Shown in pieces: positions 39,665 through 47,279 of a stretch of DNA of 64,000 nucleotides. A program made the translations under genes and the position numbers. The DNA is from Candidatus Latescibacterota bacterium (GTDB lineage: Bacteria > Latescibacterota > UBA2968 > GCA-2709665). The stretch lies in assembly GCA_965222075.1 (NCBI GenBank), contig OZ244937.1, forward strand, positions 3,072,001 to 3,136,000. Reading direction: 5' to 3'. The notes under the pieces are model-generated. The model did not search any database, was not told where the DNA came from, and worked only from the letters and a program-made list of their open reading frames with translations. Every line of letters begins with the position of its first letter. The stretch's first letter is position 1.

Positions 39665-39701
39665 TGGTCCTTTTCACCGCTCAAGTTGGTGTTTTCCACC
39701 A
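39665..39701. promoter_or_regulatory. Paired enhancer (UAS) sites for a PspF-like activator
   Basis: TGGTCCTTTTCACCG and TGGTGTTTTCCACCA, starts 22 bp apart, about 100-135 bp upstream of the -24 box. Confidence 0.6.
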
Positions 39702-39800
39702 ACTCTCTCATTTAAACGAGCTTGAACGAGCCCAATTTTCTTCTACATAAGTCTTATAAGAACAATTTCTTATATAAATATCTCCTGTTCATCAAAAACC

Positions 39801-39816
39801 CGGCACGCCCCTTGCA
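39801..39816 (+). promoter_or_regulatory. Sigma54 -24/-12 promoter of the pspA operon
   Basis: CGGCACGCCCCTTGCA with GG-N10-GC spacing, preceded by an AT-rich tract. Confidence 0.8.
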
Positions 39817-39874
39817 GAGAAGACGGCTGGAAGCTGCCGTTTCACGTTTCACAAAAAAGAGAGGAGCCACACCG

Positions 39875-40552
39875 ATGGCCAAAGGAATCTTTTCAAGAAT
39901 GGCGGACATCATCAAAGCCAACATCAACGACCTCCTGAATCGGGCGGAAGACCCGGAAAAGATGATCCGCCAGATGATCCTCGAAATGGAGGAGGCCGTC
40001 AACAAGGCGACCGCGTCCGTCGGCACCGCCGTGGCCAACGAGAAGCGGCTGGAGCGCCAGTGCCTCGAGAAAAAGGACCAGATCAAGGCCTGGCAGAAAA
40101 AGGCCGAACTCGCCGTCCAGGACGGAGAAGACGACCTGGCCCGGCGGGCGCTGGAACGGAAAGCGGCCCTGGAAGAGGCCGCCAAAGACTTGAGCGCCGC
40201 CCTCGACGAAAGCCAGCGGACCTCCAAACAGCTCAAACAGCAGCTCATGCAGCTCAAGGCCAAACTGGACGAAGCCCGCACCCGCCAGGGCGCCCTCATC
40301 GCCCGGCGCAAAGCCGCAGAAGCCCGCAAGCAGATCGCCAAAGGCCTCTCCGGCGTGGGTGACGATGCCTTCTCCAGCTTCGAGCGGTTCCGCCAGCGGG
40401 TTGAAACCGAAGAGGCCGAAGCCGAAGCCCACCAGGAAATCGCCGGTTCCGAGCCTTCGCTGGAAGACGCCTTCACCAAACTCGAACGGAAGAGCACGGT
40501 GGAAGAGGAACTTGAAGTCCTCAAGAAAAAACTGGGCCGGACCGATGCGTGA
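39875..40552 (+). CDS. pspA: PspA/IM30 family protein
   Basis: GIFSRMADIIKANINDLL..AEDPEKMIRQ, W..KAELA...GEDDLAR.AL; GAGGAG RBS. Confidence 0.95.
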   Translation: MAKGIFSRMADIIKANINDLLNRAEDPEKMIRQMILEMEEAVNKATASVGTAVANEKRLERQCLEKKDQIKAWQKKAELAVQDGEDDLARRALERKAALEEAAKDLSAALDESQRTSKQLKQQLMQLKAKLDEARTRQGALIARRKAAEARKQIAKGLSGVGDDAFSSFERFRQRVETEEAEAEAHQEIAGSEPSLEDAFTKLERKSTVEEELEVLKKKLGRTDA

Positions 40553-40762
40553 CGTCCAGAAAATCTTAGACGAAATCGCCTGCTCAAACTCGCCCGGGAA
40601 AAGGGCGGCAGCCTCACCGTCCTCGAAGCCGCCACCGATGCCCGCATGACCGTAGAAAAGGCCGAGGAGATCCTCCGAGAACTGGCCGCCCGGGGCCACG
40701 CCGAGGTCCGCGTCTCCGAGTCGGGCCTCATCGTCTACTACTTCCCGGTGCACGAACTCTGA
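40545..40762 (+). CDS. Small winged-helix protein, frameshifted near 40573 (absent from ORF track)
   Basis: ATG overlaps the pspA stop (MRDVQKILDE); one extra A joins it to NRLLKLAREKGGSLTVLEAATDARMTVEKAEEILRELAARGHAEVRVSESGLIVYYFPVHEL*. Confidence 0.7.
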
Positions 40763-44442: not shown

Positions 44443-44447
44443 AAGGG

Positions 44448-45815
44448 GTGATTCCTTTGGAAAAAACCCGGGTCCAGGACGCCGACCTCTGCTTCAAAAC
44501 CGGCCTGCGTGCCCTCAAACAGGATAAAAGGGCGGAGGCCCGGCAGGCCTTCGAGGGCGCTGTCGAGCTGCACCCGGACCATCTCAACGCCCGGTTCCAA
44601 CTCGCCCTCCTCTACGCCCGGGGCGGCGCGCCCGGTTCTGCGGGCCGGCAGAAAGCCGTAGCGGCCCTGCAGCACATCCTCGGCGTTGCCGGCCGGGGCG
44701 TGCCCTGTGCGAACCTGGACCGGGTCTGCTTCCTGTTGGGCAGCTTTCTGGACGACACACCCGAAAACCGGGGGAAGGCCATCGCAATCTACCGTCGGGG
44801 GCTCGACGCAGACCCCCTCTTTGCCCCGGGGCACAACAACCTGGGTGTCCTGCTGATGCAATCGGGCCAGACCATCCCGGCCCTGGGCGCCTTTAAAATC
44901 GCCCTCCACTTGGAGCCCGATTACACCCTCCCCTACCAGAACCTGGCCCGCCTCCTCTTCGACCACATGAGCCCTGCCCAGATGGAGCGGGAATACACCT
45001 CCATCATCGAAGAATTTGGCGTTCAGGCACCCCTGGTCCTCTCCAGGCTCTCCCTCGAACTCATCGATCTGGGCCGGGCGCAGGTCTATGAGAGCCTCTA
45101 CACCCGGGGCCACCAGATCAAGAACCTCATGGGCGTGGTCGGCAGCCGGATGCGCCGGCTGATCCGAGAATCGTCGCCCGATGAGAAAGGCCTCGACGAC
45201 CTCAAAGACATTGCCCGCGAACAGGAACGGGTCTACGACCAGTGGGTCGCCTACCTCCGCTCTATGAAACAGCACCCCATGAACCCCACGCTGGTGGAGA
45301 TCCCCCAGCTGGTCCGGAAAGCAAGCGAAAAGGTCGTCACCCGGAAAGGAAGAAAGACCCTCCGCTTCGCATCAGAAGCCCATGTTCCCCAGGTCAAGGC
45401 AGACCCCGGCATGCTCCGCGAGGCTGTCACCAACCTCATCCTCAACGCCCTCGAAGCCGTCGGAGAGGATGGAAAGGTCACCCTTCAGACCGGCTACGAT
45501 CCCAAACGCGCCTCGGTCTACGTCGAAGTGGAGGACAACGGCCCGGGTATCTCCAAACCCCTCCAGGTCCGGATCTTCGACCCCGGATACTCCACCAAAG
45601 AAAAGGGGAACGGCTACGGCCTCAGCATCTGCGCCCGGATCGTCTCGGCCCACCGCGGTAACCTCCGGGTAATGAGCCGGCCCGGCGCCGGCGCCGTCTT
45701 TCGGATTGACCTGCCGGTCGACTTCGAACTCGCCTCCGAAGAGGAGAGCATCGGCCTCCAGGGCGCCCCGCTGCAAACCGCGCGTCACCCCCTCGCCGAG
45801 GAGTTCATCAAGTGA
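44448..45815 (+). CDS. Soluble TPR-repeat histidine kinase
   Basis: TPRs (HNNLGVL, YQNLARL), H-box HQIKNL, NLILNALEA, DNGPG and G.G.GL; no TM. Confidence 0.88.
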   Translation: MIPLEKTRVQDADLCFKTGLRALKQDKRAEARQAFEGAVELHPDHLNARFQLALLYARGGAPGSAGRQKAVAALQHILGVAGRGVPCANLDRVCFLLGSFLDDTPENRGKAIAIYRRGLDADPLFAPGHNNLGVLLMQSGQTIPALGAFKIALHLEPDYTLPYQNLARLLFDHMSPAQMEREYTSIIEEFGVQAPLVLSRLSLELIDLGRAQVYESLYTRGHQIKNLMGVVGSRMRRLIRESSPDEKGLDDLKDIAREQERVYDQWVAYLRSMKQHPMNPTLVEIPQLVRKASEKVVTRKGRKTLRFASEAHVPQVKADPGMLREAVTNLILNALEAVGEDGKVTLQTGYDPKRASVYVEVEDNGPGISKPLQVRIFDPGYSTKEKGNGYGLSICARIVSAHRGNLRVMSRPGAGAVFRIDLPVDFELASEEESIGLQGAPLQTARHPLAEEFIK

Positions 45816-47218
45816 AGGCGCACATCCTCATCGCCGACGACCAGCCCGAAATCCTGGACATGCTCACCCGCAGCCTCCAGGCCGACGGCCGGACCGTTCA
45901 GGCCTTTCCCTCCAGCGCCAACGCGCTTGGCTATCTGCAAAAACACGCCCCGGCAGTCGACATGGCCATCCTCGACCTCGACTTTGGCCCCGGCGAACCC
46001 GACGGCCTGGAAACCCTCCGGCAGATGCGGCAAGAAGCGCCCGACCTGCCCGTAATCATCCTTACCGGCAAAGGCACCGTGGAAACCGCCGTAGCTGCCC
46101 TGCGCCTGGGCGCGGCCGACTTCATTGAAAAAGACTTCTACATCGAAGACAGGCTTGAACTCAGCCTGGAAAAACTCGACCGGATGCTCTCTGTCCTCCG
46201 GGAAAATGCCCGGCTGCGGGCCGAAGTGGACGACCTCGACCGGGAAAACCGGTTCTACCGGGCCGAATTCGGAAAGCGCTACCAGGTCATCAGCGTCAGT
46301 CCCCAGATGCAGCAGATCATGCAGCAGGCCGAGCGCATCGCCTCCATCCCCCGCCCCGTCCTCATCCTGGGCGAACGGGGCACCGGCAAAGAACTGGTGG
46401 CCGCCGCGGTCCACTACGGGGGCGTGCGCAAAGACCGCCCCTTTGTCAAAGTCAACTGCGCGGCCCTCTCCGCCACCCTCTTGGAAAGCGAACTCTTCGG
46501 GCACGAAAAAGGGGCCTTCACCGGTGCGGTCGAGGCCCGCCCGGGCCGGTTCGAGGCCGCCAACGGGGGCACCCTCTTCTTAGACGAAATCGCCAGCACC
46601 ACCCCCGAGTTTCAGCAGAACATCCTGCGCGCCATCGAATACCAGGAAGTACAGCGGGTCGGCGCTGCCGCGCCGGTACCGGTGGACGTGCGCATCATCG
46701 CCGCTACGAATGCCGACCTCGAACGGGAAATGGCCGAAGGCCGCTTCCGGGAGGACCTCTACGACCGCCTCCGGTTCGAAATCATCCGCATCCCCCCCCT
46801 CCGGCAGCGCCGGGAAGACATCCAGCCCTTAGCAGAGTTTTTCGCCGAACAGATCCTCCAGGAAGTCCCCGGCCTTGTACGCCGTCCCTTTTCAAACGCC
46901 GCCACAAAACGGCTGCTCGCTTACGGCTGGCCGGGCAACGTGCGCGACCTCAAATTCGCCGTGGAGCGGGCCGCCTGCATGGTCGCCGGCCCCGCCATCG
47001 AACCCGACGACCTGCCTCCCGAAATCGCCTCGGGCGCATTCGAACCCTCCGGTGAGGGATTTGAAGCGCAGACGAGGGCCTTTGAACTGGGCTTGCTCCG
47101 CCAGGCCCTGCACGCCACCGCCTGGAACCAGCGGCAGGCCGCCGCCCAATTGAAACTCAGCTACGACCAGTTCCGCCACCGCTACCGGAAATACGACCTG
47201 GACCGGGAAAAGCCGTAG
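45812..47218 (+). CDS. Sigma54-dependent response regulator, REC plus PspF-like AAA+/HTH
   Basis: IADD/ILD receiver; [45 protein letters not shown]. Confidence 0.9.
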
Positions 47219-47247
47219 CGACACCCAAACGGCCACCACCTTCCACA

Positions 47248-47279
47248 GGCCCGAGCATTCGGGCCATTTTATTGTTTTT
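47248..47279 (+). terminator. Probable terminator of the psp cluster
   Basis: GGCCCGA-gcat-TCGGGCC followed by ATTTTATTGTTTTT. Confidence 0.6.

Follow-up and report, generated by a model that had tools for sequence, protein, structure and literature searches.

The 64,000-nt stretch of DNA analysed here (the window) belongs to a Candidatus Latescibacterota genome that consists of one 5.36-Mb contig (G000:C1). Between 39.66 and 47.28 kb it carries a cluster of genes, all on the plus strand, around pspA, the gene of the ESCRT-III-like phage-shock protein PspA. The best explanation of this locus as a whole, to which we would give a probability of roughly 0.6, is that it is a lineage-specific envelope-stress operon of the phage-shock (Psp) type. 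The locus is real and conserved, and it represents a variant form of the Psp system, not a system of a new kind. Its newest element is a family of small proteins, which we call sB, and not the combination of genes. The proposed step from a soluble kinase through a sigma-54 promoter to pspA is well supported by comparison with relatives.

An earlier note, made from the letters of this DNA, had described ten co-oriented open reading frames (ORFs) and a duplicate remnant between a sigma-54 promoter and a terminator. The ORF list bears this out in coordinates and strand (Table 1); the terminator-like hairpin (47248-47265) begins 30 nt past the stop codon of the final gene, that of the activator. 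The labels given there to PspA, the extracytoplasmic function (ECF) sigma factor, the flotillin, the TPR kinase and the REC activator are supported by Pfam and NCBIfam domain matches. PspA itself matches PF04012 over residues 4-219 (E 2e-46; 158.8 bits, cut-off 33.9) and shares 40% identity with E. coli PspA across 218 aa; on the equivalog model TIGR02977 it reaches 186 bits, under the cut-off of 242.95. The reported absence of pspC holds for the whole 5.36-Mb genome, where nothing exceeds the cut-off of PF04024 (best E 0.275) in a search whose control detected the family over cut-off in seven known genomes. Nor does any protein genome-wide exceed the cut-off for PspB (PF06667; best E 0.104).

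The evidence that carries the regulatory part of our reading lies upstream of pspA. An exact GGCACG-N4-TTGC, the sole exact match in the window, stands at 39802-39815, 60 nt upstream of the gene. As a pattern it is not enriched: the window holds four matches at up to one mismatch against 7.2 expected, and the genome-wide count (44 against 30 in the control) is not discriminating. The weight of the promoter call comes from its position and from its conservation in relatives, which are metagenome-assembled genomes (MAGs) of Candidatus Latescibacterota, a few of them filed as Gemmatimonadota. In an alignment of 14 upstream regions (the window and 13 relatives; L016, whose contig starts 46 nt before pspA, was excluded) the -24 GG and -12 TTGC columns are invariant in all 14, and apart from the promoter two upstream TGG...CCA blocks are nearly the sole conserved parts of these otherwise divergent sequences. 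The window has two upstream-activator-like sites about 100-135 nt upstream of the -24/-12 element, namely TTGGTC-N5-CACCG (39664-39679) and the perfect 8+8 palindrome AGTTGGTG-N5-CACCAACT (39684-39704). Loci of a sister order carry TGGCAC-N5-TTGCA together with tandem TGGCG-N5-CGCCA palindromes in front of pspA. Eight further loci could be compared; the sigma-54 regular expression matches five of them, and in the other three GGCAC-N5/6-TTGC was read by eye.

The same signals are found at a second pspA, unlinked to the cluster and 56% identical to its pspA (G000:C1:2702266-2702940; 1477-2154 of L003, minus strand). Here TTGGTG-N5-TACCAA lies 104 nt upstream of GGCACAgcattTGTA, a sigma-54-type promoter. 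The second pspA of relatives has this layout in all eight cases examined (seven by the sigma-54 expression and five by the palindrome expression, the rest by eye). The conserved palindromes before the cluster pspA and the unlinked one can be described as tandem TGG-N9-CCA. In the genome TTGGTG-N6-ACCAA occurs four times, where the control gave 0-1; a pspA gene follows two of these sites, and a sigma-54 element is lacking at the remaining two. An rpoN gene is present. Palindromes joined to sigma-54 promoters at two pspA genes are good comparative evidence that the HTH activator encoded at the end of the operon is the psp regulator.

The genome has a third PspA (L002, G000:C1:3895627-3899307), whose gene has CesT_Tir_1 (E 4.9e-46) and DUF4178 genes as its two neighbours, with an ORF lying opposite that looks by eye like a spermidine synthase. 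This context is the polyamine-linked PspA setting described in passages of PMC11237479.

The last two genes of the cluster encode the kinase and the activator, and the start of the second overlaps the stop of the first by 4 nt. The kinase is soluble, with no hydrophobic segment (maximum KD19 = 1.17). It matches TPR families and HATPase_c (E 8e-23) and no Pfam HisKA model; across 17 orthologues there is no variation in H222 (within GHQIKN) or in the N, G1 and G2 boxes. In the activator a REC domain (residues 5-112) is followed by a sigma-54 AAA+ domain (PF00158, E 9.9e-65) with GAFTGA and by HTH_8 (E 2.1e-5). Its AAA+ and HTH parts are 44% identical to E. coli PspF, and the PspF model TIGR02974 is its best NCBIfam model by E-value, at 344 bits under a cut-off of 443.55.

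Such likeness to PspF, and that of PspA to its E. coli counterpart, could be taken to mean that the feedback of E. coli operates here too: PspA would bind the activator's AAA+ domain and silence it directly, with no more than an auxiliary input from the kinase and REC domain. We consider this rather unlikely. The tryptophan W56 of PspF acts in PspA binding, and the residue aligned with it in the activator is a lysine, K207. Moreover, a full REC domain and a co-conserved cognate kinase gene are present in every locus examined.

How far does this arrangement extend? Fourteen loci of relatives, picked for a flotillin match, were fetched; they represent two families of a single order. All 14 have the same genes in the same order, with one to four sB-type genes, so that the cluster singled out by the earlier note is indeed syntenic in relatives. 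In a sister order (family f4) all six loci hold pspA, a gene for a transmembrane (TM) winged-helix protein (TM-wH), sB, the kinase and the activator; the ECF gene, nfeD and floT are in none of the six. Of 168 genomes in the phylum, 100 gave a match to the N-terminal part of the kinase (20/21 in family f1, 28/31 in f2, 50/76 in f4), with one weak match in f3 and none in ten other families sampled. The flotillin was found in 33 of the 41 genomes searched and in none from five genera. The order from pspA to kinase and activator is retained, with short gaps, across two orders.

These comparisons indicate a putative core across two orders, consisting of pspA, TM-wH, sB, the 2TM peptide, the soluble TPR kinase and the REC-AAA+-HTH activator. 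The simplest reading of the rest is growth by accretion: a core psp and two-component unit would have received the ECF gene in one order, and then nfeD-floT behind the ECF gene in some genera. Since the ECF gene occurs without nfeD-floT (L037, L038, L096, L097) and the core occurs without the ECF gene, the operon seems to have been put together stepwise and not as one designed unit. The earlier interpretation is supported as regards a conserved Psp-centred cluster with a sigma-54 promoter, a bacterial enhancer-binding protein (bEBP) and a soluble kinase; the whole looks like a stepwise accretion.

What do the small genes behind pspA encode? In sB1 a single N-terminal TM segment is followed by a cytoplasmic helix (hydropathy, alignment). 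Throughout the family, an invariant C-terminal R-x6-R-L-x-D-x-Q-D-x5-D-x-K stands behind variable membrane parts. The sB family as such, sB1 and sB2 included, has no match in Pfam or NCBIfam. A HMMER scan of 1.84 billion proteins yielded 234 sB representatives (50% identity) at E<=0.001. A word-indexed search yielded 215 sB proteins, and among the 120 listed all are unnamed or "hypothetical" and have no Pfam domain. Some members are large proteins in which a signal peptide and an extracytoplasmic domain, CBM9-like or other, precede a single TM segment and this C-terminal helix; in others a TM2 domain is present. Within the source genome sB genes are confined to the psp cluster. The remnant (40991-41117) repeats the 3' part of sB1 at 79-86% DNA identity (direct repeats D1, D3); it is without the TM part, its frame is broken and its profile match contains a stop codon.

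These genes had been called PspB-like repeats, and this name cannot be kept. The resemblance to PspB is one of form only: the gene follows pspA, and its product is small, with a single TM segment at the N-terminus and a cytoplasmic helix. PF06667 matches neither sB1 nor sB2, nor any of 49 family representatives. With hhalign, sB gives 2.3% against E. coli PspB and 18% over nine columns against a PspB profile, whose sequences were all from Enterobacterales at 84-99% identity, a diversity so low that remote kinship could be missed. In a language-model (Atlas) search the nearest PspB-bearing cluster came at 0.80, a level often reached by chance. With Pfam, the single-sequence hhalign comparison and a 14-sequence profile all negative, no homology of sB to PspB is detectable. 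As for a SHOCT-like identity of the sB helix, the Pfam scans returned no SHOCT; a dedicated profile test was not made.

In two sister-order genomes (L109, L110) a TM2-sB gene and then a CBM9-like-TM-sB gene come after a different pspA paralogue (35% identical), on contigs too short for regulators to be visible. The sB motif is thus tied to pspA in two cluster types, which favours a role of sB as a possible adaptor or co-sensor for PspA. Complex prediction of sB1 with PspA and with residues 1-200 of the kinase TPR part gave scores of 0.04 and 0.11 against a mark of 0.32; it had no controls and speaks neither for nor against such contacts.

A more speculative suggestion can be made, which we would call possible and still doubtful. 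The sB helix may be a new, dedicated docking or signalling motif for ESCRT-III-like PspA, carried on interchangeable sensors (a single TM segment, three TM segments, a TM2 domain, or a CBM9-like domain with a signal peptide). It would recruit PspA or feed the soluble TPR kinase, and with a tethered winged-helix protein it would make up a route independent of PspB and PspC. If true, the state of the envelope would be coupled to PspA assembly and to sigma-54 transcription without PspB/C.

The 59-aa peptide sTM had been labelled PspG-like. It matches no Pfam or NCBIfam family at E<=0.1, PspG (PF09583) included, and the label falls. The peptide is present in 14/14 of the flotillin-selected loci and in 4/6 of the sister-order loci.

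Relatives show additional genes in this region. In the same-genus locus L016 (1457-3841) a 794-aa gene with CarboxypepD_reg and DUF5686 separates sB1 from sB2; the window has no such gene. In the family's largest genus (L017 10751-11200, also L018, L019 and L021) a gene for a STAS-domain protein, similar to anti-sigma antagonists, lies between sB genes; this hints at partner switching in that genus, and the gene is likewise absent from the window. One of the four sB-type genes of L020 carries a TM2 domain (PF05154, E 5.6e-19). The intervals 7569-8169 and 9082-9441 of L020 are listed for this TM2-bearing sB gene and for the nfeD of that relative, which is in two pieces about 4 nt apart and may contain a frameshift.

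The ORF that directly follows pspA in the window had been labelled a winged helix. Alignment to relatives identifies it as a remnant damaged by deletion and frameshift; the gene of the 2TM-winged-helix partner, judged by its sequence, is decayed in the source genome. In relatives the gene after pspA is intact; its product, of 168-223 aa, comprises, besides an N-terminal helix and a DGSCAMRY motif, a pair of hydrophobic helices and a C-terminal domain. Modelled with AF2 (pLDDT 80), the protein of the same-genus relative has two long helices and a winged-helix domain, and its best Foldseek matches are winged helix-turn-helix (wHTH) proteins of the CadC, MarR, IclR and TFE types (E about 3e-3). 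The window keeps the first 12 codons and then an out-of-frame join to the C-terminal winged-helix part, with no usable start codon before 40646. Compared to the same-genus relative about 253 nt are missing, which is not a multiple of 3, plus 39 nt near the 3' end. Overall the same-genus locus is longer by 300 nt, some 253 nt of which fall within this gene. The deletion is real and not an assembly slip, because a contig from an RNA library of an independent run (40484-40689) is identical to the window across the deletion junction. Outside the lineage three distant winged-helix matches (L072-L074) have no PspA nearby. In an Atlas search with this domain clusters came at 0.89-0.90, the commonest known phyla being Myxococcota and Actinomycetota.

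The sigma factor has only sigma-70 regions 2 and 4 (Sigma70_r2 E 4.8e-17, r4_2 E 1.9e-15) and scores 108.7 bits on TIGR02937 against a cut-off of 42.9; on all named equivalogs, SigW and RpoE included, it is under the cut-offs. No anti-sigma gene is recognisable beside it, its neighbours being the genes of the NfeD-like protein and of the 2TM peptide, and the latter also occurs in loci without the ECF gene. A cascade from a response-regulator bEBP through sigma-54 to an alternative sigma factor exists in Pseudomonas (HrpRS-HrpL). The cascade from kinase through sigma-54 to ECF sigma that had been proposed for this DNA is supported by comparison in its first part; the ECF tier is a suggestion from gene position only.

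Could the ECF factor, in the manner of SigW, drive nfeD-floT and perhaps pspA? Its gene lies directly upstream of nfeD-floT wherever the flotillin is present (14 loci), and in B. subtilis, according to passages of PMC8581546, sigma-W controls floT, floA and pspA-ydjGHI. However, the gap between the ECF and nfeD genes holds TTGACA-18-TATCAT, with no ECF-type -35/-10 and no motif common to the families, and the ECF gene persists where nfeD-floT is absent. We regard such control as unlikely; for the flotillin it is not supported. The view that the locus merges the logics of E. coli and B. subtilis finds no support at the same point: before pspA and nfeD-floT no ECF-type promoter was found, and a sigma-70-like TTGACA/TATnnT element stands after the ECF gene instead. 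The TTGACA -35 stands just past the ECF stop codon in the own-genus, L020 and L037 loci; at the same place the second genus has TTGACG and L038 the poorer TTCCTG. A clear -10 follows the ECF gene in the own-genus loci and in L020, L037 and L038. The promoter stays whether nfeD or the kinase gene follows, and its retention there suggests that the regulatory genes probably have basal expression of their own.

The pair behind this element had been called NfeD/flotillin. The second half of the name stands. The flotillin matches Band_7 (E 3.3e-27, 96.1 bits against a cut-off of 23.6), has an N-terminal hydrophobic segment (residues 1-28) as an anchor and a long coiled coil, and is 24% identical to the SPFH domain of E. 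coli YqiK (E 5e-15). The FloT model aligns over residues 8-485 but reaches 135 bits against a cut-off of 700, so the protein does not qualify as a FloT equivalog. The first half of the name is weak. The protein encoded directly upstream of the flotillin gene has three hydrophobic helices and a beta-rich C-terminus, and its match to PF01957 has E 0.062; among 14 orthologues nine match (best E 0.0016), all under the cut-off. A PDB profile search gave 0 matches, hhalign gave 0.1% against E. coli YqiJ, and the model (pLDDT 61.7 overall, 40-56 at the C-terminus, strands of low confidence) was too weak to search structures with.

Two observations on relatives concern the flotillin. In G030 (C1:1916987-1918510) the match holds an in-frame TAG. 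In seven genomes of the genus of G030 it comes in two overlapping pieces, which suggests that repeat length varies in the coiled coil.

The locus is apparently expressed. Four metatranscriptome runs of one study, labelled as sponge metagenome, hold 32-35% of the words of the stretch. Contigs from these RNA libraries (at least 99% identity) bridge six junctions: pspA/remnant, sB2/sTM, ECF/nfeD, nfeD/floT, floT/kinase and kinase/activator. In three of the four runs contigs begin at 42241-42245, just past the internal -10, a weak hint only; one further contig spans this point. The four runs have no coverage at 40866-41176 or 47086-48018, which was not used as evidence. DNA nearly identical to 39000-48300 of the window occurs in 12 runs of four studies (89-99% of words); with the sponge label of the RNA runs, this suggests that the organism is sponge-associated.

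That the psp unit, the ECF gene, nfeD-floT and the two-component pair merely stand side by side, independent of one another, with the kinase and activator regulating something else, would suit modules that come and go (ECF without nfeD-floT, the core without ECF), the internal sigma-70-like promoter and a flotillin in only 33 of 41 relatives, and yet it is improbable in view of a pspA...kinase-activator order kept over two orders with short gaps, of palindromes that accompany a sigma-54 promoter at two pspA genes and lack one at their other two sites, and of RNA-library contigs that bridge the gene junctions.

Several points weigh against our preferred explanation, a Psp-type envelope-stress operon. 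The RNA-library contigs give no strand, no transcript end and no proof of a single transcript, RNA libraries may contain DNA, and all come from one study. The activator scores about equally on the AtoC, NtrC and PspF models and lies below every equivalog cut-off. The 14 loci were chosen by a flotillin match and therefore provide no measure of flotillin frequency in the cluster. The NfeD assignment is weak, depending on PF01957, topology and the position before the flotillin gene. Before pspA and nfeD-floT no ECF-type promoter was found, and alignments of the ECF-nfeD and ECF-kinase gaps share no motif. Finally, the source is an uncultured MAG.

If a Psp-type operon is nevertheless what we see, the following course of events can be suggested. 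The kinase would phosphorylate the REC domain of the activator, and the phosphorylated activator would bind the palindromes and open the sigma-54 promoters. This route would replace, or add to, sequestration of PspF by PspA as in E. coli. The sB proteins and the 2TM peptide might be membrane anchors or co-sensors for PspA, and in that case they would be functional analogues, not homologues, of PspB/C or LiaI. Because no anti-sigma gene is adjacent, the ECF factor would be made as an output of the sigma-54 promoter and would form a second tier. The nfeD-floT pair would be a later insertion, and the sigma-70-like promoter would give it and the kinase and activator genes basal expression.

Table 1. 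Features of the psp locus, with positions in the window
Feature	Position	Strand	Basis
Two upstream-activator-like sites in tandem	39664..39704	+	sequence read, palindrome search
Sigma-54 type promoter CGGCACGccccTTGCA, -24 GG / -12 GC	39801..39816	+	pattern search, alignment
pspA, 225 aa	39875..40552	+	PF04012
Decayed 2TM and winged-helix remnant ORF	40545..40762	+	comparison with relatives
sB1, 69 aa	40782..40991	+	ORF list, family alignment
Non-functional duplicate of the 3' part of sB1	40991..41117	+	direct repeats D1 and D3
sB2, 85 aa, second member of the sB family	41151..41408	+	ORF list, profile match
sTM, 59 aa, two hydrophobic helices	41413..41592	+	ORF list, hydropathy
ECF-type sigma factor, 193 aa	41605..42186	+	Sigma70_r2, r4_2, TIGR02937
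Internal sigma-70-like promoter TTGACA-18-TATCAT	42200..42229	+	pattern
NfeD/YuaF-like membrane protein, 201 aa	42256..42861	+	weak PF01957, topology, position
Flotillin-type SPFH protein, 514 aa	42898..44442	+	Band_7
Soluble TPR histidine kinase, 455 aa	44448..45815	+	TPR families, HATPase_c
REC - sigma-54 AAA+ - HTH_8 activator	45812..47218	+	REC, Sigma54_activat, HTH_8
Intrinsic-terminator-like hairpin GGCCCGAGCATTCGGGCC, then T-run ATTTTATTGT	47248..47275	+	hairpin search

On the far side of the promoter a cell-wall amidase gene with LysM and Amidase_3 (38288-39598, minus strand) is divergent from pspA. It is syntenic in both families of the order and has no match in the six sister-order loci. 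Before it, on the plus strand, lies an 858-aa ORF (35730-38306), which by eye resembles a heavy-metal P-type ATPase with two N-terminal metal-binding CxxC repeats.

Why might this locus be of wider interest? Little is understood of how PspA systems outside Proteobacteria and Firmicutes detect membrane damage, and the locus bears on this question. With a PspF-type activator under a soluble TPR kinase it offers a model, open to test, other than that in which PspA sequesters PspF. The sB family, unannotated so far, accompanies pspA genes in clusters of two types. The locus also documents how a stress operon may grow, by gain of an ECF sigma gene and then of a flotillin pair. Although the organism is uncultured, all parts of the locus can be tested in a heterologous host.

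In the literature we found no paper that mentions both Latescibacteria and phage shock, and the main text of PMC11237479, supplementary tables and web application aside, does not contain the word "Latescibacteria". Several elements of the locus are in print. Passages of PMC9239133 and PMC11237479 describe duplicated PspB, PspF variants with ACT or PAS domains and REC-HTH control of PspA homologues; DVU2989 of Desulfovibrio is listed in PMC4641369 as a PspF-type single-component regulator. Neighbourhoods in which pspA accompanies a TM, band-7 and flotillin set and a 3TM gene of the YqiJ/YuaF type, as here, have been described in Acidobacteriota (PMC9239133) and in CesT/Tir-PspA operons (PMC11237479). 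Unlike the present locus, these published Band-7/NfeD contexts are given, in main-text passages of both papers, without a REC-type sigma-54 activator, a TPR kinase, an ECF sigma factor or sB-type proteins. The architecture had not been known to the earlier note as described. The association of PspA with Band-7/FloT and with NfeD or YqiJ/YuaF is thus already published; no psp operon with a REC-type sigma-54 activator, a TPR kinase and an ECF sigma factor was found in the passages of these papers, survey supplements and web resources aside.

The locus resembles pspF/pspABCDE of E. coli in having pspA behind a sigma-54 promoter with upstream activator sites, and an activator with a PspF-like core. 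It differs in its activator, which bears a REC domain, is paired with a cognate soluble TPR kinase, has a lysine aligned with W56 and comes from the last gene of the operon itself, whereas E. coli pspF is divergent; homologues of PspB, PspC and PspG were not found. As in the liaIH-liaGFSR system of B. subtilis, described in passages of PMC11237479, a kinase and a response regulator would induce a PspA-family gene that comes with small membrane proteins. However, LiaR is a REC-wHTH protein working with sigma-A and LiaS is membrane-bound, in contrast to the sigma-54 activator and soluble kinase of the locus, and sB and sTM match no LiaI or LiaF family in Pfam or NCBIfam. With the sigma-W regulon of B. 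subtilis the locus shares the presence of PspA, an SPFH/flotillin protein and an ECF sigma factor in one membrane-stress response, in which, according to passages of PMC8581546, an SPFH protein is needed to bring PspA to the membrane. That regulon is dispersed, whereas the genes of the locus are clustered, with the ECF gene inside the operon and no ECF promoter found. Lastly, the locus is like the Rrp2-RpoN-RpoS pathway of Borrelia, where, according to PMC2940757, a second sigma factor has its gene read from a sigma-54 promoter that depends on a bEBP; unlike there, the second sigma gene of the locus is one passenger in a psp operon.

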